64,000 bases of DNA, from IMG/VR virus record IMGVR_UViG_2939127364_000001; one strand, written 5' to 3'. Below are positions 30,465 through 64,000 of this stretch, piece after piece. The DNA is from a virus. Taxonomy: Duplodnaviria; Heunggongvirae; Uroviricota; Caudoviricetes. Below the pieces are notes generated by a model. That model had not been told where the DNA came from. It searched no databases and saw only the letters and a program-made list of their open reading frames with translations. The number at the start of each line of letters is the position of its first letter. Position 1 is the stretch's first letter. The position numbers were made by a program, and so were the translations under genes.

Positions 30465-30776
30465 TCAGGCTATTGCCATCACTGATGCTCTCTGAATCTC
30501 TTGCTGGGCCACGCGGTTAACTTCCATCAAAGCCAGTTCGAGCTGATGTTCCGGCCACATTCTTTGAAATGCCATCCAGCCTTTTCCACGCTGGCGACGA
30601 ACATTCATTACATAACGAGTAAAGGTGTTTTTATCGAAAGACACCGCTGTTTCACGGAACAGACGAATAGAAGTTCCATTGGCAACGATGTCCAGGAAAG
30701 TTAATTGAGCAACCAGTGCAGGCTTCTCTTTTCTCTTCTGGTCTTTGTCCAGACCAAGAACCAATGATTTTTTCAT
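30465..30776 (-). CDS. Hypothetical protein (palindromic-motif regulon member)
   Basis: ATG 30776 (MKKSLVLG...) with GGAG RBS; degenerate palindrome copy just upstream. Confidence 0.35.
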   Translation of the reverse strand: MKKSLVLGLDKDQKRKEKPALVAQLTFLDIVANGTSIRLFRETAVSFDKNTFTRYVMNVRRQRGKGWMAFQRMWPEHQLELALMEVNRVAQQEIQRASVMAIA

Positions 30777-34228: not shown

Positions 34229-36262
34229 TTACTTAACCTGGTGGCCTGGTTTAGCACCAGCATCCGGGCTTAACAGGAAGATATCTTTCCCGCCGGGGCC
34301 AGCAGCCATCACCATGCCTTCGGAGATACCGAAGCGCATTTTACGCGGAGCCAGGTTAGCCACCATAATGGTGTGACGACCAATCAGTGCCTGTGGGTCT
34401 GGATAAGCAGAACGGATGCCTGAGAAGACATTACGCTTTTCACCACCGAGATCCAGTGTCAGACGCAGCAGTTTGTCAGAACCTTCGACAAACTCCGCGT
34501 TTTCAATCAGCGCCACACGCAGGTCAACTTTGGCGAAGTCGTCAAAGGTGATGGTTTCCTGAATCGGGTCGTCAGCCAGTGGGCCAGTTACCGGTGCAGC
34601 TGTGGCTTTCACTTCTTCTTTGGATGCTTCCACCAGTGCTTCCACCTGTTTCATATCGATACGGTTATACAATGCCTTGAACGGATTCACTTTATGGCCC
34701 AGCAGCGGTTGCTGGATACCATCCCAGGTCAGTTCTGTATTCAGGAATGCTTCTGCACGTTCAGTCAGTTTCGGCAGTACCGGTTTCAAGTACGTCATCA
34801 GCACGCGGAACAGGTTAATGCCCATAGAGCAAATCGCCTGCAGATCGGCATCGCGTCCTTCCTGCTTCGCCACCACCCACGGAGCCTGTTCATCGACATA
34901 TCGGTTAGCCAGGTCAGCCAATGCCATGATTTCACGGATAGCTTTACCAAATTCGCGGCTTTCCCATGCTTCGCCAATCACTTCAGCGGCATCAGTAAAG
35001 GTTTTGTACAGTTGCGGGTCAGCCAGTTCGCTTGCCAGCACGCCGTCAAAACGCTTGTTGATAAAGCCTGCATTACGGGAGGCCAGGTTAACCACTTTGT
35101 TCACGATATCGGCATTCACGCGCTGAACGAAATCCTCCAGGTTGAGATCGATATCATCAATGCGCGAAGAGAGTTTCGCAGTGTAGTAGTAACGCAGGCT
35201 GTCGGCGTCAAAATGATTCAGCCAGGTGCTGGCTTTAATAAAGGTGCCGCGAGACTTGGACATCTTCGCGCCGTTCACCGTCACATAGCCGTGAACAAAC
35301 AGGTTGGTCGGCTTGCGGAAGTTGCTGCCTTCCAGCATGGCAGGCCAGAACAGGCTGTGGAAGTAAACAATATCTTTACCGATGAAGTGGTACAGCTCGG
35401 CTGTGGAGTCTTTCTTCCAGTATTCATCGAAGCTGGTGGTATCGCCGCGCTTGTCGCACAGATTCTTGAAGGAACCCATGTAGCCAATCGGCGCGTCCAG
35501 CCAGACGTAGAAATATTTGCCCGGCGCGTTCGGAATTTCAAAACCGAAGTAAGGCGCATCGCGGGAGATATCCCACTGTTGCAGGCCGGATTCAAACCAC
35601 TCCTGCATTTTGTTCGCCACCTGCTCCTGCAACGCACCGCTGCGGGTCCATGCCTGCAACATTTCGCTGAAAGAGGGCAGATCAAAGAAGAAGTGTTCGG
35701 AATCACGCATTACCGGGGTAGCGCCAGAAACCACCGATTTCGGCTCGATCAATTCAGTCGGGCTATATGTTGCGCCGCAGACTTCACAGTTATCGCCGTA
35801 TTGATCTGGCGCTTTACATTTCGGGCAGGTGCCTTTCACAAAACGATCCGGCAGGAACATGCCTTTTTCCGGGTCGTACAACTGAGAGATAGTGCGGTTT
35901 TTAATAAAACCGTTCTCTTTCAGGCGAGTATAGATAAGCTCAGACAGCTGGCGGTTCTCTTCGCTGTGCGTCGAGTGATAGTTGTCATAGCTGATGTTAA
36001 AGCCTGCGAAATCAGTCTGGTGTTCCTGACTCATTTCGCCAATCATCTGCTCCGGTGTGATACCAAGCTGCTGTGCTTTCAGCATGATCGGCGTACCGTG
36101 GGCATCGTCGGCACAGATGAAATTAACCTCGTGGCCGCGCATTCGCTGGTAACGAACCCAGACATCAGCCTGGATGTGCTCCAGCATATGGCCGAGGTGG
36201 ATTGAGCCGTTAGCGTACGGCAGCGCGCACGTCACCAGAATTTTCTTCGCGACTTGGGTCAT
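34229..36262 (-). CDS. metG: Methionine--tRNA ligase
   Basis: 677 aa from [29 protein letters not shown] (HIGH motif), KMSKS present, C-terminal tRNA-binding domain; near identical to the E. coli MetG I know. Track ORF is an N-terminally over-extended version. Confidence 0.95.
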
Positions 36263-36419: not shown

Positions 36420-37520
36420 ATGAGCGAGTCCAAATCGCCGGATGCCCTGAGAGCAATGGTAGCCGGTACGCTGGCTAATTTTCAGCACCCAACCCTGAAA
36501 CACAACCTGACTACGCTTAAAGCGTTACACCATGTTGCGTTGATGGATGACACACTGCATGTCGAACTAATCATGCCTTTCGTGTGGAATAAGCCTTTTG
36601 AAGACCTGAAAGAGCAATGTAGTGGTGATCTGCTCCGTATCACTGGCGCAAAGGCTATTGACTGGAAGCTGTCGTACAACATTGCCACGCTTAAGCGCGT
36701 CAAAAACCAACCAGGCATTAATGGCGTTAAGAACATTATCGCCGTCAGCTCAGGCAAGGGCGGCGTGGGTAAATCCTCCACGGCGGTAAACCTGGCACTG
36801 GCGTTGGCTGCTGAAGGTGCGAAAGTTGGTATTTTGGATGCCGATATCTATGGTCCATCAATTCCAACCATGCTGGGCGCGGAAAACCAACGTCCAACCT
36901 CACCTGACGGTACTCACATGGCACCTATCATGTCTCATGGCCTGGCAACCAACTCTATTGGTTATCTGGTCACCGACGACAATGCAATGGTGTGGCGTGG
37001 ACCGATGGCCAGCAAGGCGCTGATGCAGATGTTGCAGGAAACTCTATGGCCTGATCTGGACTATCTCGTTCTCGATATGCCGCCGGGCACTGGTGATATT
37101 CAGTTGACGCTGGCGCAGAACATTCCTGTAACTGGTGCGGTTGTGGTAACTACGCCGCAAGACATCGCGCTGATCGATGCGAAGAAAGGCATTGTGATGT
37201 TCGAAAAAGTCGAAGTGCCGGTACTGGGTATCGTCGAAAACATGAGTGTGCATATTTGCAGTAACTGCGGTCATCACGAGCCAATTTTTGGCACCGGTGG
37301 CGCACAGAAACTGGCCGAGAAATACAACACGCAGTTGTTAGGCCAAATGCCACTTCATATCTCTCTTCGTGAAGATCTGGATAACGGAACACCAACCGTT
37401 ATTAGTCGTCCAGATAGCGAATTTACGGCTATTTATCGTGACCTCGCAGATCGCGTTGCCGCCCAAATGTATTGGCAAGGTGAAGTAATACCTGGCGAAA
37501 TCGCATTCCGCGCAGTGTGA
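36420..37520 (+). CDS. apbC: Fe-S cluster carrier ATPase ApbC/Mrp
   Basis: P-loop SGKGGVGKSST, Mrp/NBP35 CxxC motif (CSNCGHH); divergent from metG as in E. coli. Confidence 0.95.
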   Translation: MSESKSPDALRAMVAGTLANFQHPTLKHNLTTLKALHHVALMDDTLHVELIMPFVWNKPFEDLKEQCSGDLLRITGAKAIDWKLSYNIATLKRVKNQPGINGVKNIIAVSSGKGGVGKSSTAVNLALALAAEGAKVGILDADIYGPSIPTMLGAENQRPTSPDGTHMAPIMSHGLATNSIGYLVTDDNAMVWRGPMASKALMQMLQETLWPDLDYLVLDMPPGTGDIQLTLAQNIPVTGAVVVTTPQDIALIDAKKGIVMFEKVEVPVLGIVENMSVHICSNCGHHEPIFGTGGAQKLAEKYNTQLLGQMPLHISLREDLDNGTPTVISRPDSEFTAIYRDLADRVAAQMYWQGEVIPGEIAFRAV

Positions 37521-37556
37521 TAAAAGGCGGTGCATTGCACCGCCTAATCAGTTCTC

Positions 37557-37946
37557 CTACATCACGGGACAATCATCAAACTCGCCACTTCTTGCGTCGT
37601 TGATAATGTGAGTGATCACACCAAACACGGCATTGCTGCCCGTGCATCCATCGTCATCCTTTGGCAATGCTTCCTTCTTACCGGTTCTTAAATCCTCCAG
37701 ATGCTGACGTGGGTACTTCCGGTATCTTTTTACGCGATATTCCCCATCCAGAGCGCATACAAGCAGAGAACCATCAACCGGGGTAAGTGAGGAATCGACC
37801 ACCAGCAATGCACCCTGTAATATTCCCTCACGATGATGACTATCAGCTGCCCTCATGAAGTAGGTCGCTGAAGGATGTCTAATTATCTGCTGATCAAGAG
37901 AAATACGGCTCTCAGCATAATCCGCCGCAGGAGAAGGGAAGCCCAT
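37557..37946 (-). CDS. UmuD'-like S24 peptidase-fold protein (HumD-like, lacks the UmuD N-terminal arm)
   Basis: MGFPSPAADYAESRISLDQQIIRHPSATYF aligns with UmuD from Gly25 (the UmuD' N-terminus); Ser in AADSHH and Lys in YRVKRY at catalytic positions; LexA box 19 nt upstream. Confidence 0.7.
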   Translation of the reverse strand: MGFPSPAADYAESRISLDQQIIRHPSATYFMRAADSHHREGILQGALLVVDSSLTPVDGSLLVCALDGEYRVKRYRKYPRQHLEDLRTGKKEALPKDDDGCTGSNAVFGVITHIINDARSGEFDDCPVM

Positions 37947-37964
37947 AGCGTTTTCACCTCAGAG

Positions 37965-37984
37965 TACTGTTTATCCATACAGTA
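37965..37984 (-). promoter_or_regulatory. LexA (SOS) box upstream of the UmuD'-like gene
   Basis: TACTGTTTATCCATACAGTA (CTGT-N8-ACAG) 19 nt upstream of ATG, followed by GAGGTG RBS. Confidence 0.7.
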
Positions 37985-38044
37985 TACATTAAAGATGCTT
38001 GAAGTGTGCAATAGCGCGATGCTTTGCGCTCGTCTGGTGGCGCG

Positions 38045-38296
38045 TTATTTTTTGGCTATATCTTCTTTCTGATATACCGGATCGTTTCCTTTTGGCAGCA
38101 GGAGGCTTAACTGCCGGTAGTGCCGTAGCCGTTCCATGAAATAGGTGCGCAGGTTCTCAGGTTGCTCACGGGCTACCTGTTCCGCTATGACGGGTATGTT
38201 CAATCGCTCTTTGTAGGCAACCCCCCTGGCAGCCAGGTCAACGTTAACTTTATTCCTTTCTTCCTGGCTTTTGGCTGCTATGTTCCAGTTGCTCAT
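38045..38296 (-). CDS. Hypothetical small protein
   Basis: 83 aa ORF between the hsdM promoter region and the UmuD'-like gene. Confidence 0.3.
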
Positions 38297-38648
38297 GTTT
38301 AAGGCTCACATTTCCAGATGGTATTCTGAACACCCGTACCAGGCGCAAGATGAGGGTTAGCGTTCGCGCTATGCAGATATACAGCTTTAGACTTTCCGTA
38401 TTGCTGACAGGCTTTATCTGCGTTTTTTGGCAGGCTATCCAAGCCAATACCAGCCATCGAACTGGATGCTAACCTTTTCACCGTCATTGTATTGCACCAT
38501 CGCACACCCAGACATAGCTAAAATCGCACCGACAATACCGCTTTTCCAAAAAGCTCTAATTAGGTCATTCGTTACCTAATGTCCGAACTGCTAAAGCATC
38601 CAAGTTGCTGTAGAATCACATCCAATTACTTAAACCTGAAATAAGTGG

Positions 38649-58996: not shown

Positions 58997-60902
58997 AGCT
59001 GCGCCCCTCTTTAACTTCGACAGTGATAATTTCCCGGAACCACGATTTCATCTCTTTGTGGGAGATGATCATCACTGTGCCACGTTCACGCGCTTTGGCT
59101 TCCAGAATCCCCATGAGACGCTCCAGACCGGCTGTGTCGAGCGCGTCGTCAATTTCATCACCGATAAATAGCTCGATATTCTTACTGGCGCGACTGGCAA
59201 CCAGATCCTGCAAAGCCAGAGAGCACGCAATACGTACCTTACGCTTCTCACCACCAGACAAAGTCTGGAAGGATTTGCTGGAGCCTGTTTTGATTACGCT
59301 GATATTGAATTTGTCGCGATACTCACCTTTCTTCGTTGTCTCCATTGTCGACCATTCGGCAACGATATTGCCGTCCGACAGCGTGTTGAGATACTCCGCA
59401 GTCCTGATGTTCAGGAAAGGCGTAACGGAGGTCAGGATGTGTGAACGCACGCCTGCTGGGGAGTAAACCTGGCGGGCCTTCTCCAGCAACAGAGCCTGTT
59501 CCTGAATGCTCTTTAACTCATTTTTAAGTACTGCATGATTAGATTTATTGGCAGCCAGGTTGTCTTCATGGCGCTTAATAACGGCCAGAAATGGGTTTGC
59601 TTCCGCCATGATGCGATTCACTTCAGTACGCGCCCGCGCAACCATCGCTTCGACGGCCACAACTTCACGTTCGCGATGACGCAGCGCACTTAGCTCATTG
59701 GTCAGGCGTTCTATTGTGGAGATGATTTCTGAGACGTCGGGTGTGGCTGCGACCAGTGCAGACTCGATACCGAGTGCTTTCTCAAGACGAGTCTTGTGTT
59801 GAGCCACTGCCGCTGCTGATGTCTGCGCAAGGCCGATCTCATTGCGCGCTTGTTCAATGAAGCTCTCCTTCACCGTGGATAAATCTTCTTCGCAGTAGGG
59901 CTTTCCGCACGTAATGCAGGGTGCCCCGATCTTTGTGCTGACCTCTTCAGCTTTGGTTTTAAACGAGCGAGCACGGTTTATCGACTCGTTCTGTGCCGCT
60001 TCTGAAGTACGGATGCTTGAGCGGATCTCAGTAATAGCACTGCGCACCTTCAGCAGTTTGGCGTCATGCTCTTCTTTGGAGGCCAGCTTGCTGCGTTCGC
60101 CAGCAATCGCATTTTCCGTATCACGGATCTGTTCTGGCAGCGAGCGAATTTCCATCTCGACTTCAGACAGTGTTACCTCCGCGCCAGCCAAATCGGCTCG
60201 GGCCTTGTCCAGACGCTCGCCGCGATCGCGCTCCCAGCTTTCAGAGGACGCTTTGGCCGCCTCAATCTCTGACTGTGCAGTCTCGATAAGCGTGAGACAG
60301 GCGTCCATTTTGGATTTGGTAACGTCCATACGTGCGGCAGCTGCATTAGCACGCTCGCGGGCAATGGCATAGGCTCGCGTCAATCGGTCGACGCCAGCAG
60401 CTTCTTCAACGATGGTTTTGAGGCTCTTGTCGGACATACCGGGCAGATCTGGCATCGCTTCCTGACTGGCGTAGATGGACGCCATGAACACCTCTTTCGA
60501 TGCCCCAATCAGACGTTCTACGAACGTCTGTGTCAGCGTGTCCTTGCCTTTGGTCATATCACCGTCTTCACCACGGACGATTAGTCGGTTCTTGAACTCT
60601 TTGTGTTTACGATGGCGAATGATCGCGTATTTCTTACCTTCGTCTTCAACTGTAACCATCACACGGCAGTTCTTCTCATGGCCCGTCGACAGCACGTCAT
60701 CGCCTTTGACGCCATGTGCAGTCTCACCATACAGACACCACATTAAGCTATTCATCAGAGTGGATTTCCCGGCGCCATTGCTGGCAGCAGACGTATCGCC
60801 ACTGTTCACACCCTGGATCAGCACCAGTCCACGCTGGTCTAACTCGACTTCTGCGCTGGCGATTGCCATAAAATTTTCAACCTGGAGCTTTAAAAACTTC
60901 AT
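58986..60902 (-). CDS. SbcC/Rad50-like SMC ATPase
   Basis: N-terminal MKFLKLQVENF...GLVLIQGVNSGDTSAASNGAGKST (Walker A), long coiled coil, C-terminal LSGGEKRKVRIACSLAL and FIGDEIDDALD; track ORF is over-extended to 61148. Confidence 0.75.
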   Translation of the reverse strand: MKFLKLQVENFMAIASAEVELDQRGLVLIQGVNSGDTSAASNGAGKSTLMNSLMWCLYGETAHGVKGDDVLSTGHEKNCRVMVTVEDEGKKYAIIRHRKHKEFKNRLIVRGEDGDMTKGKDTLTQTFVERLIGASKEVFMASIYASQEAMPDLPGMSDKSLKTIVEEAAGVDRLTRAYAIARERANAAAARMDVTKSKMDACLTLIETAQSEIEAAKASSESWERDRGERLDKARADLAGAEVTLSEVEMEIRSLPEQIRDTENAIAGERSKLASKEEHDAKLLKVRSAITEIRSSIRTSEAAQNESINRARSFKTKAEEVSTKIGAPCITCGKPYCEEDLSTVKESFIEQARNEIGLAQTSAAAVAQHKTRLEKALGIESALVAATPDVSEIISTIERLTNELSALRHREREVVAVEAMVARARTEVNRIMAEANPFLAVIKRHEDNLAANKSNHAVLKNELKSIQEQALLLEKARQVYSPAGVRSHILTSVTPFLNIRTAEYLNTLSDGNIVAEWSTMETTKKGEYRDKFNISVIKTGSSKSFQTLSGGEKRKVRIACSLALQDLVASRASKNIELFIGDEIDDALDTAGLERLMGILEAKARERGTVMIISHKEMKSWFREIITVEVKEGRSYVV

Positions 60903-61131
60903 ATAACACCTCTGATATCGTGTGTTAACTTTTGACCATCTTTCAATCTGAACTCCGTATGCGCGGGGAAGGATCTGCGATTCAATAAGCCTTTTCTGGT
61001 TAGCCTTCCAAGATAAAACGCTACGGGATTTCCTCCTGAAGGGTATGGCTTGTGAAACATAACCGTCTGGCCTTTTTGAAGTTTTTTCATCACGATGGCA
61101 AACTCTCGAAAGCTCCCATAATAACGTTGCC

Positions 61132-62217
61132 TCACACAGCCTCCGCACTCTCTGCTTCGGTCAAGATCTCCTGACACAGTATGTCCAGCTTGCTCAGGTC
61201 GAAGCCACCGTCAGTGTCGTGAACGATCTTGCAGTACGCCGCAACGGACTCGCCCAGGCTGTCAATTTTGCTGGTTTCCGCAGTACTGGCAGCGCCTTCC
61301 ATCATCGATGCCTTGCGAATGAAGTTGCAGACGACACCCTTCGCGCCCATTGTTTTCAGGACGTTCTGAAGTTTGATGCCTTCTTCATCGCTCTCAACAA
61401 CGGCACGGAAGCGCACGTAGTTGCCGCGAATCTGATCGTCATCTACATCGTCCTCAAGGTTCACGAATTTAGGTGCCGAGGTTTCGTGGTGAGTGAATGA
61501 GCCGTCCGGTTTGACGATCATGAAGCCGGCCAGTGAACCAACATCCCCCCAATTCTGGTGTGTCAGCGCCCCGATACTTACCACTCCAGGCAGCACTTCT
61601 TTGTGGTTGTGGTAGTGCCCGGACAACAATAAACGGAAGCCGATATCTTTCAGTTCCTGTGCGTCGATGCCGACATCGGGCATGGTGGGGATCGCTTTGT
61701 TGATTGAGGTATGTACAACAACATCATGGTTGTCACCATCCAGCCCGGAACGCAGCGTTTTGAGATCGCTGATAAGTTCTGCGTGGTTATTACGCCAGCT
61801 AATCAGATGGACGGTTACGTCGCCCATTTTGATGGAATGAGGACGTTTGCCGCAGACGATTTCCACACCGATTGAGCGCAGAGAGGCTGCTGCATTGGCG
61901 CTGTATACGGAATTGTTGGTTTCGAGGTCGTGGTTGCCAGCCAGCATTACCACCTTGAGACCCAACTCTTTGATGATCCACTCGTAAGTTTCGGTCACGA
62001 AATGCAGAACGGAAGGTGATATAGCACCGCGAACATGGAAGGTATCACCAGCTACCAGCATGTGCTTACAGCCAGCAGCTTTCATCGCTTTGGCCGCCTC
62101 CTTCGTAGCGTCCAGTTGGATCTCCAGCCGAGAGTTAAGCCCGTCAGCGTTTGTTGTCGCAAAAGCATCCCAACGATGATAATGGGGATCTGATATTACC
62201 CCGTATGGCAATGTCAT
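61132..62217 (-). CDS. SbcD/Mre11-like metallophosphoesterase nuclease
   Basis: DPHYH, GDTFH, GNHD and GHYH calcineurin-like phosphoesterase motifs. Confidence 0.75.
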   Translation of the reverse strand: MTLPYGVISDPHYHRWDAFATTNADGLNSRLEIQLDATKEAAKAMKAAGCKHMLVAGDTFHVRGAISPSVLHFVTETYEWIIKELGLKVVMLAGNHDLETNNSVYSANAAASLRSIGVEIVCGKRPHSIKMGDVTVHLISWRNNHAELISDLKTLRSGLDGDNHDVVVHTSINKAIPTMPDVGIDAQELKDIGFRLLLSGHYHNHKEVLPGVVSIGALTHQNWGDVGSLAGFMIVKPDGSFTHHETSAPKFVNLEDDVDDDQIRGNYVRFRAVVESDEEGIKLQNVLKTMGAKGVVCNFIRKASMMEGAASTAETSKIDSLGESVAAYCKIVHDTDGGFDLSKLDILCQEILTEAESAEAV

Positions 62218-62613
62218 GTGTCTTTTCCTTTGTGGTTATTTTGATACAAATTCTAAGCGTGCATAAGAGGCATACAACCCAGACAACACGGCACACAAAA
62301 GAATATAAAGGCACATGATAATGACAAAAAAATAAGTAAGTAAATACCTATCAGATAGGGCAGCAACGATTTCTAAACGTCACAAGCAATTTTATGAGAG
62401 CAGTCATTTACTGATGACAAGAAATGAAAAAGGAGAACGGACGGTGAAGTTGTGAGATGACATCTACGGCGTTTGCGTGTGTCGTCTTCAAACGCATCCG
62501 TCGGCCACAGTTTCTGCTCTTGAATAAAATTCACTCATGCATTAATCCCTAAAGCTCTCAGTGTCTTTCTAAGACACCATATTTTATGCCCGGTAAAAAG
62601 CATGAGTTTGCCT

Positions 62614-63258
62614 TTAAAACGTCTCTGAGGGCTTCTGACGCGCTCTGCTGATGTCTATTACCCCAGCTTTTGGACGAGGGTCTACAAGATTCAACTCTTC
62701 AGCACTGTGATACTCCGTGTCGAACTCCCGATCGACATGGCGAATGTAAATGGCTGTCAGAAGGCTGTTATCATTCAGAAAGTGTCCGTAAGATTTGCGA
62801 ATTACTTCGCCAACCTTCTCAATCTTCTCTCCGCCCATGCAGAGATGGTTAAATCGGCTGTGTTTCCGCAGCATTTCATCCACCGGGCCTGAGTAGACCT
62901 TATCAACTCTCCCGAACCGGATGATATTTCCGGTATCAGCTTCAACCAGACAAACGAGTTTGCCAGGTTCGACACGATCTCGCCAAGTGACACCAGAGCG
63001 CAGTGTGTTGAAGTAGGGAGCATCCAATCCGATGATCGGTTTACGAAATGCTAGTAGTGGCACGTAACGTATGCAGCTGTTTAGGTGGAAATGCGCACCG
63101 GCGTCGTGGAGTTTAAGCCGGGTTTCGTTAATCGGGCATTTCGAAGCAATGCCGCAAAGGTCGCAGAGCAACTTCTGTTTGTTCAGACTAGTGTTTGATT
63201 CAATGGTGTAGGAGCCATCTTCAAGACGGCGAACCCAGCGCGTGCGTTTAAGATCCAT
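62614..63258 (-). CDS. Hypothetical protein adjacent to the iteron array
   Basis: 214 aa ORF with Cys pairs (CDLCGIASKC); nearest gene to the origin-like repeats. Confidence 0.35.
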   Translation of the reverse strand: MDLKRTRWVRRLEDGSYTIESNTSLNKQKLLCDLCGIASKCPINETRLKLHDAGAHFHLNSCIRYVPLLAFRKPIIGLDAPYFNTLRSGVTWRDRVEPGKLVCLVEADTGNIIRFGRVDKVYSGPVDEMLRKHSRFNHLCMGGEKIEKVGEVIRKSYGHFLNDNSLLTAIYIRHVDREFDTEYHSAEELNLVDPRPKAGVIDISRARQKPSETF

Positions 63259-63344
63259 AATTCTTGTTCAAATAATTTTGTCCGGGGCAACGATAACGGA
63301 TAAGGCGCACCGGAGTTTGCAAATGCCTGTTTACTTATTCACTT

Positions 63345-63420
63345 TATTCACAGGCCCGATCCAATATTTAGATCCCCAGAGAGATCCTACAGAAGATCAA
63401 AAGAGATCCCAGATCGTCTC
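63345..63420. promoter_or_regulatory. Origin-like leader, unit 1: DnaA-box-like sequence plus six GATC sites in about 60 bp
   Basis: TTATTCACAGG then CCGATCC, AGATCCCC, GAGATCC, AGATCAA, GAGATCCC, AGATCGT. Confidence 0.45.
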
Positions 63421-63458
63421 CAGCGCTTGCGGTTACTGGCTTGAGAAGGGGTTACTAT

Positions 63459-63557
63459 CCACTATAGGGAGCAAAATAACCACTGTAGAGAGCATAATAA
63501 CCGCTATGAAGAGCAAAACAACCTCTCTGGAGAGTAGTCGGTATCCACTGTAGTGAG
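63459..63557. repeat. Iterons, family 2, array 1 (5 copies, 21-bp period)
   Basis: CCACTATAGGGAG, CCACTGTAGAGAG, CCGCTATGAAGAG, CCTCTCTGGAGAG, CCACTGTAGTGAG starting at about 63459, 63480, 63501, 63522, 63545. Confidence 0.7.
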
Positions 63558-63714
63558 TAGGAGACAATGTTTTAACTGGATAACTCCGAGCCTGTTTTTC
63601 TGCGGCAGATGGCTGATATTCTTGGAAATATTGTAAATTTTGCGCTGCGGCGTGTTTATTTCGATCACACATTATCCCCAGAAGGGGAGTGATGCCTGAT
63701 TTTGTAATTATCTG

Positions 63715-63800
63715 ATTTTTATACACAGGCCCGATCCAGTAATTCAGATCCCTGTTAGAACCAAAGAGAACCACAAAGACCCAAAGAGATCCCCGGCCCC
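63715..63800. promoter_or_regulatory. Origin-like leader, unit 2: DnaA-box-like sequence plus GATC sites
   Basis: TTATACACAGGCCCGATCCAGTAATTCAGATCCC ... AAAGAGATCCCC; homologous to unit 1. Confidence 0.45.
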
Positions 63801-63841
63801 TGCAAACCGTTGTGCCACATGGCTTTAGAGGTTATCGATAT

Positions 63842-63960
63842 CCACTATAGTGAGAATAACAACCACTATAGAGAGTAAATCAACCACTATGGAGAGTAGA
63901 AAAACCGCTGTAGGCGGTAGGATAACCACTGTGATGGGTGCTACTATCCACTGTAATCAG
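63842..63960. repeat. Iterons, family 2, array 2 (6 copies, 21-bp period)
   Basis: CCACTATAGTGAG, CCACTATAGAGAG, CCACTATGGAGAG, CCGCTGTAGGCGG, CCACTGTGATGGG, CCACTGTAATCAG starting at about 63842, 63863, 63884, 63905, 63926, 63948. Confidence 0.7.
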
Positions 63961-64000
63961 TAAAGGCACCCAAGCCGTCGAATAAAAAGAGACATTTGGA

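Follow-up and report, generated by a model that had tools for sequence, protein, structure and literature searches.

Bacteriophage P1 encodes a shorter, already activated form of UmuD, which has been named HumD (PMC7092418), and humD is regarded as a LexA-regulated SOS gene residing in a variable region of P1-like phage-plasmids (PMC9603915). As relayed in later papers, P1 HumD restores SOS mutagenesis in UmuD'-defective E. coli (McLenigan 1999, PMID 10559166; via PMC7092418, PMC4713147 and PMC11541004), and the concept of a pre-activated, SOS-controlled UmuD' that is carried on a mobile element and borrows the UmuC of its host goes back to the same 1999 work on P1 (McLenigan 1999, as relayed there). 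The annotation of the P1 genome record also describes humD as functionally complementing UmuD'. P1 HumD reportedly forms dimers, binds UmuC as well as RecA filaments, and rescues mutagenesis in recA430 and umuDC-deletion backgrounds. A preliminary description of a 64,000-nucleotide stretch of viral DNA (hereafter the window) had drawn attention to a UmuD'-like gene preceded by a LexA box, and had proposed complementation of a umuD mutant as a test of its function; by the account of the papers that cite it, such an experiment has already been published for P1 HumD (McLenigan 1999; via PMC4713147, PMC7092418 and PMC11541004). Here, we describe a computational analysis of this gene, its regulatory region and the element that carries it. 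The coordinates of the features are collected in Table 1.

Table 1. Features of the humD locus and related genes in the window.
Feature	Position	Strand	Basis or remark
humD CDS (129 aa), pre-truncated UmuD' analogue	37557..37946	minus	ORF list, NCBIfam, Pfam, PDB
LexA (SOS) box, predicted	37965..37984		TACTGTATGGATAAACAGTA on gene strand
Shine-Dalgarno-like GAGGTG	37955..37960	minus	8 nt before humD ATG
sigma-70-like promoter, predicted	37981..38010	minus	consensus scan, 9/12 matches
terminator-like hairpin	37520..37545	minus	9-bp GC-rich stem 37525..37545, then UUUUAU; between convergent humD and apbC
metG	34229..36262 (RefSeq start)	minus	cargo on phage-plasmid
apbC	36420..37520	plus	cargo on phage-plasmid
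hot, DNA polymerase III theta homologue (83 aa)	38045..38296	minus	directly 5' of humD, same strand
hsdM-hsdS-hsdR, type I R-M	38649..44765	plus	95-96% identical to hsd loci of P1-like phages (vB_EcoM-673R5, phi456)
DnaQ-like 3'-5' exonuclease	51926..52480	minus	Pfam RNase_T, 76.6 bits

The gene encodes a minus-strand product of 129 residues whose N-terminus reads MGFPSPAADYAESRISLDQQ, and the span under which it was originally listed, 37557-37984, comprises the humD ORF together with the LexA box. The first residues are M-GFPSPAADY, and in alignments with known structures, among which UmuD' and the full-length UmuD of Pol V were the best hits, the Gly at residue 2 falls opposite residue 25 of the latter (PDB 8gmt_B) and residue 1 of the former (1umu_A, E = 7e-23). 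The same pairing was obtained with K-12 UmuD taken from NC_000913.3, and the proposal that the ORF begins at the equivalent of UmuD Gly25 was thus borne out. An in-frame stop is located five codons 5' of the humD ATG, and no alternative in-frame start (ATG, GTG or TTG) was found between the two. The upstream in-frame start that had been named beforehand as the observation that would overturn this reading is therefore absent, the N-terminal arm cannot be restored, and the short form is the sole product that can be made.

Comparison with family models led to the same assignment. The equivalog model NCBIfam NF051876 ("HumD family translesion DNA polymerase") matched over positions 1-129 of 129 with 219.8 bits against a cutoff of 120 (E = 8e-66), and the identical RefSeq protein, WP_000506720.1, is named 'HumD family translesion DNA polymerase'. 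The other traits of the HumD family are also found here, namely a start at the Gly25 equivalent, loss of both the N-terminal arm and the Cys24-Gly25 cleavage site, a gene without an operon partner of the umuC polymerase type, and a predicted LexA operator in the regulatory region. The UmuD model NCBIfam NF007621 (Pol V autoproteolytic subunit) gave 87 bits, below its cutoff of 110, with the 24 N-terminal residues missing, and HumD is not a member of that subfamily. The LexA model TIGR00498 gave 27 bits against a cutoff of 111 and covered the C-terminal domain only; membership of the LexA or phage CI-type repressors requires a DNA-binding N-terminal domain, and HumD, at only 129 residues, falls outside both. 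Pfam PF00717 (Peptidase_S24) was matched with 37.9 bits against a cutoff of 23.3.

In tblastn searches of phage genomes the protein was 100% identical to a gene product of Escherichia phage Cyrano, 98-99% identical to those of CMS-2020a and PhiR41_1, 91-93% identical to HumD of P1, P7, RCS47, SJ46 and D6, and 64-73% identical to the products of UmuD-like genes of phiKO2, N15, HK140 and HK639. The dN/dS values of the window humD were 0.05 against P1 and 0.07 against D6, and the gene is under strong purifying selection. Its locus had been said to resemble the P1 HumD arrangement, a view supported by the amino acid identity to P1 HumD (91.5%), the full-length NF051876 match, and an equivalent LexA site and Shine-Dalgarno/ATG context; by these matches the gene goes beyond mere resemblance and is a HumD orthologue.

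A search of a protein collection returned 561 homologous clusters, many of them already labelled HumD, and the named clusters came from Escherichia, Citrobacter, Klebsiella, Enterobacter, Salmonella and Kluyvera. Among the matches listed, 106 of 120 representatives start with M-GFPSP or M-GYPSP, and the listed representatives mostly measure 126-130 residues with the same start. Six of the seven longer N-termini among these 120 have an internal Met directly before GFPSPA, so that the longer forms look like over-extended gene calls. A humD match covering at least 80% of the query was counted in 678 of the 5,426 complete E. coli genomes (about one in eight), and 699 of the 812 humD places obtained from all matches are on plasmids.

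The LexA box, TACTGTTTATCCATACAGTA, has three mismatches to the consensus TACTGTATATATATACAGTA. No other site in the 64-kb window comes this close to the LexA 20-mer (three or fewer mismatches), and none of 100 dinucleotide-preserving shuffles produced such a match. The box had originally been placed 19 nt upstream of the gene; its identity stands, but the gap between box and ATG is 18 nt. The bare CTGT-N8-ACAG core occurs twice in the window against 0.9 expected, which is not significant. Its second occurrence, at 30647..30662 (CTGTTTCACGGAACAG), has a GC-rich spacer and more than three mismatches to the LexA 20-mer, and was dropped as a candidate LexA site, being a chance-level match. In position the humD box, at -38, compares with the K-12 umuDC box at -39. 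A box of the TACTGT-N8-ACAGT type, in which the last base varies, was located 5' of humD in all nine phage loci examined, at 34-64 nt from the start in eight of them; in HK140 the box precedes an intervening small ORF. A LexA site is annotated at the equivalent place in both P1 and phiKO2, the P1 record labelling it "LexA binding site in the regulatory region of lxr and humD", just 5' of humD.

The predicted promoter consists of a -35 element TGCACA (38010..38005), an 18-nt spacer and a -10 element TATACT (37986..37981) that overlaps the LexA box, and the promoter scan of this region gave one promoter-like site against 2.2 expected from shuffles, which makes the prediction a weak one. P1 and the window have in common the -35 sequence TTGCAC and the stretch CTTTAATGT, and the stretch GAGGTGAAAACGCTATGGGCTTC, which forms the Shine-Dalgarno/ATG context of humD, is identical in P1. 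In the P1 annotation, PhumD is predicted to lie within lxr, about 480 bp upstream, and lxr is absent here. At the other end of the gene, the hairpin between humD and apbC gave an RNA fold of -19.9 kcal/mol (z = -4.4) and was missed by the pattern scan for promoters and terminators. No clear terminator was found between hot and humD, so that LexA-independent read-through into humD is possible.

The setting of the gene is not chromosomal. In E. coli plasmids of about 101-114 kb the 1.3 kb around humD recur with 100% identity, and the window as a whole matches the SSU5-like phage-plasmids CMS-2020a, Cyrano/pLF82, PhiR41_1 and Klebsiella pJN2-26 in tail, head and replication genes, the matched regions including genes for the tape measure, J-like tail tip, portal, terminase and partition. 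By these matches the window belongs to an SSU5-like phage-plasmid of E. coli of about 110 kb. A chromosomal island, in which humD would lie between a chromosomal apbC and an R-M island, was rejected because of the plasmid matches and because metG-apbC is only about 90% identical to the chromosome; a window made up entirely of a P1-like phage was also rejected, as within the 10-kb P1 stretch compared around humD only humD with its box (86% nucleotide identity) and hot (90%) match. Cyrano is the pLF82 element of strain LF82, a virion-producing phage-plasmid of the SSU5-like siphovirus type that responds to genotoxic stress, in the form of ciprofloxacin, with induction (PMC9928086).

The metG-apbC pair is a second, diverged copy with about 90% nucleotide identity to the E. 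coli chromosomal pair, and such copies were found at 221 plasmid places among the complete E. coli genomes. As cargo, it gives the phage-plasmid a methionyl-tRNA synthetase and an Fe-S carrier of its own. Compared with plasmid pGD31-F25, the stretch 51947..64000 is only 75-77% identical, and most of the remaining window is 97-99.7% identical. The element is mosaic.

The gene had been located between apbC and the R-M system, but it does not adjoin the latter directly, as hot, which had been passed over, separates humD from hsdM. Hot matched Pfam PF06440 with 107.9 bits (cutoff 34.6) and NCBIfam PRK10969, aligned over its full length (residues 1-83) with the P1 Hot structures 1se7 and 2ido (E = 9e-45), and is 88% identical in amino acid sequence to P1 Hot; the spacer between hot and humD is 98 bp. 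The P1 gene order is hot, lxr (on the opposite strand), LexA box, humD, phd and doc, and by this comparison the locus is the hot-humD module of P1, minus lxr and phd-doc. In vB_EcoM-673R5 the hsd genes are situated between pmgS and phd-doc, which is the place of the P1 pap...humD block, and this placement fits the P1 record, where P1-like DNA is noted on both sides of the EcoDXXI and R124 hsd loci. A segment of hsdS (about 40837..41390) did not align with related plasmids, which suggests a variable target-recognition domain. Similarity to Cyrano/pLF82 spans apbC, humD and the LexA box and ends at 37994, and comparison with the window found neither hot nor hsd genes in Cyrano upstream of humD; hot and hsd are thus an insertion or replacement of their own, 5' of the humD promoter. 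By these comparisons the locus is a mosaic of modules swapped between P1-like and SSU5-like phage-plasmids. The exact apbC-humD-hot-hsdM arrangement was found in 74 genomes. An ORF of 68 codons at 38299..38505 (minus strand), between hsdM and hot, has no Pfam match and is unannotated in RefSeq relatives, and is probably not a gene.

When K-12 UmuC served as the tblastn query, neither the window nor the complete related plasmid pGD31-F25 yielded a umuC homologue (best E = 0.7), and no Y-family polymerase is listed in the annotation of pGD31-F25, in keeping with the original remark that an adjacent umuC-like polymerase gene is missing. Thus, as for P1, reliance on the UmuC of the host is the simplest reading. 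The annotation of pGD31-F25 does include recA, dnaE, a primase, a DnaB-like helicase, a ligase, a 3'-5' exonuclease, nrdAB, thyA and dfrA51, all of which, except the exonuclease, map outside the region represented by the window. With regard to the DnaQ-like exonuclease of the window, the partner of Hot might be this epsilon-like protein of the element instead of the epsilon of the host.

Alignments with the UmuD structures and with K-12 UmuD paired Ser36 with UmuD Ser60 and Lys73 with Lys97, and so confirmed the original observation that Ser and Lys are kept at the catalytic positions. The GDSM motif of UmuD has degenerated to ADSH in HumD. Across 107 family representatives the Ser60 position is occupied by Ser in 62, Thr in 43 and Ala in two, and the Lys97 position by Lys in 105, with the rest of the GDSM motif lost. 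The statement that Ser and Lys are retained is thus true of this protein, but the alignment indicates that the nucleophile is not strictly conserved family-wide. The C-terminal tail, INDARxGEFDDCPVM, is nearly invariant in the HumD family and missing from UmuD; in this protein it corresponds to residues 116..129 (37560..37601 of the window, minus strand) and is acidic with a hydrophobic tip. It may loosely recall the C-terminal docking peptide of SSB (DFDDDIPF). An AlphaFold2 model of HumD built from a 97-sequence family alignment was poor, with a mean pLDDT of 60.4 and values below 50 at residues 1-23, 96-105 and 119-129, and offered no confident structure for the tail.

The gene is humD, a phage version of UmuD' that travels with hot as a module shared with P1, and we consider it very probable that it is derepressed in the SOS response and that its product is pre-activated and partners host UmuC. 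In an undamaged cell, host LexA would sit on the 20-bp box overlapping the -10 element of the humD promoter and thereby keep the gene off. Upon DNA damage, RecA-stimulated cleavage of LexA would allow transcription of humD, and translation would yield at once the form into which UmuD is converted only by RecA-mediated self-cleavage at Cys24-Gly25. Made in its processed form, HumD would skip the slow post-translational activation that delays host Pol V, and it does not possess the N-terminal arm, which is the part that carries the regulatory determinants of UmuD. A HumD dimer, together with the LexA-controlled UmuC of the host, RecA and ATP, would then constitute a Pol V-like translesion polymerase able to copy damaged DNA of both phage-plasmid and host, the price being mutations. 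By analogy with P1, LexA would occupy the box, the predicted promoter would be used in this element and host UmuC would be the partner of HumD, and the 91.5% identity to P1 HumD suggests that this allele would also replace UmuD' in SOS mutagenesis.

Other roles can be envisaged. HumD, together with the epsilon binder Hot, could tune Pol III, or the DnaE and DnaQ-like exonuclease of the element, during damage-induced replication, and this, more than activation of UmuC, would be its main role. In this locus as in P1, hot and humD are same-strand neighbours, which would fit such a function, as would the DnaQ-like exonuclease in the window and the presence in pGD31-F25 of dnaE, primase, DnaB-like helicase and recA in a plasmid without a Y-family polymerase; in addition, Sutton, Opperman and Walker are said to have reported in 1999 an interaction of both UmuD and UmuD' with the Pol III subunits alpha, beta and epsilon. 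However, P1 has hot-humD without dnaE, and N15, phiKO2, HK140, HK639 and Cyrano have humD without hot, which means that the hot-humD pairing is not a family trait. The published P1 result is, in the form in which it is relayed, a restoration of UmuD'-type SOS mutagenesis (McLenigan 1999), and a main role at the replicative polymerase in place of UmuC appears very improbable. We regard it as very improbable that HumD is an active Ser/Thr-Lys peptidase working in trans, for example on the arm of host UmuD in a heterodimer or on another S24-type protein, and thereby speeding the switch to SOS mutagenesis. It is true that a hydroxyl is found at the Ser60 position in 105 of the 107 representatives (62 Ser, 43 Thr), that Lys occupies the Lys97 position in 105 although HumD has no cleavage site of its own, and that UmuD cleavage can be intermolecular. 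In contrast, however, the remainder of the GDSM motif is lost, with a variable Asp and His in place of Met, Thr would be an unusual nucleophile among Ser-Lys dyad peptidases, and the Lys position is Met in HK639. Moreover, UmuD' carrying Ser60Ala still supports mutagenesis, so that the residues may be kept for structural reasons.

That humD is instead a functionless remnant of a decaying umuDC operon is scarcely credible. While the loss of both the N-terminal arm and umuC, and a score below the UmuD subfamily cutoff (87 against 110 bits), are what such a remnant would display, the dN/dS of 0.05-0.07, the 561 homologous clusters with listed representatives mostly of 126-130 residues and the same start, and the conserved operator all argue against decay, as does a P1 orthologue described as functional (PMC7092418, citing McLenigan 1999). 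The conservation data effectively refute this reading. Although the phage UmuD' that partners host UmuC remains our preferred model, the kept Ser/Thr and Lys residues and the invariant tail are not obviously needed by a passive UmuD' mimic, and count against the model in its plain form. The HumD family may, in an extension that we hold to be unlikely, go beyond passive copying of UmuD', with the tail docking to the replisome or to repair proteins, the dyad acting in trans, for example on host UmuD, and hot-humD forming a portable 'replisome-tuning' cassette. Such a cassette could pass from one phage-plasmid lineage to another, unrelated one, here the P1-like and the SSU5-like.

The humD gene described here is an ordinary copy of a phage gene that has already been characterised, and as such was already known. 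The main gain is a corrected map, in which the P1 hot-humD module resides in an SSU5-like phage-plasmid beside an R-M system shared with P1-like phages and a second metG-apbC pair. Given its presence in about one in eight complete E. coli genomes, mostly on phage-plasmids, humD may add to damage-induced mutagenesis in clinical strains, which is a known idea. The sole parts that depart from the textbook are the kept Ser/Thr-Lys dyad and the EFDDCPVM tail, both at the level of the family, and these offer a cheap follow-up to those working on Pol V.

In relation to known systems, HumD shares with MucA, ImpA, SamA and RumA the character of an SOS-controlled accessory subunit of Y-family polymerases encoded on mobile elements (PMC7092418). 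These proteins, however, are full-length, need cleavage and are encoded in operons with mucB, impB, samB and rumB, respectively, neither of which holds for HumD. With E. coli UmuD/UmuD' (PDB 1umu, 1i4v and 8gmt) it has in common the S24 fold, 44% identity over 115 aligned residues, the kept Ser and Lys positions, and the spacing between LexA box and ATG. In contrast, UmuD has 24 extra N-terminal residues, has to undergo self-cleavage on RecA filaments, and is co-transcribed with umuC, and HumD differs further in a small insertion preceding the last strand and in a C-terminal extension of 10 residues (GEFDDCPVM), which is missing from UmuD.

Among phage proteins, N15 gp26, phiKO2 gp23 and their counterparts in HK140, HK639 and Enterobacter phage vB_Ecl_MII_003 resemble the protein described here in length (127-129 residues), in the Gly25-equivalent start, in possessing the same C-terminal tail, and in having a LexA box upstream and no umuC; they differ in their lower identity (64-73%), in Thr at the Ser60 position, and in having no hot. 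In phiKO2, dinI is the divergent neighbour of humD, and in HK140 dinI is situated upstream of the intervening small ORF. The system to which the locus is most readily compared is that of P1, a myovirus, in contrast to the SSU5-like siphovirus phage-plasmid that carries the gene here. In P1, lxr (573 bp, opposite strand) lies between hot and the LexA box, and phd-doc lie downstream, whereas here apbC and metG are found downstream and a type I hsd locus upstream of hot. Nevertheless, P1 HumD (YP_006569.1) has the same 129 residues in length, is 91.5% identical and begins with the same M-GFPSPAADY, and the two loci have in common a LexA box about 38-39 nt upstream of the gene, the absence of umuC, and hot upstream on the same strand.
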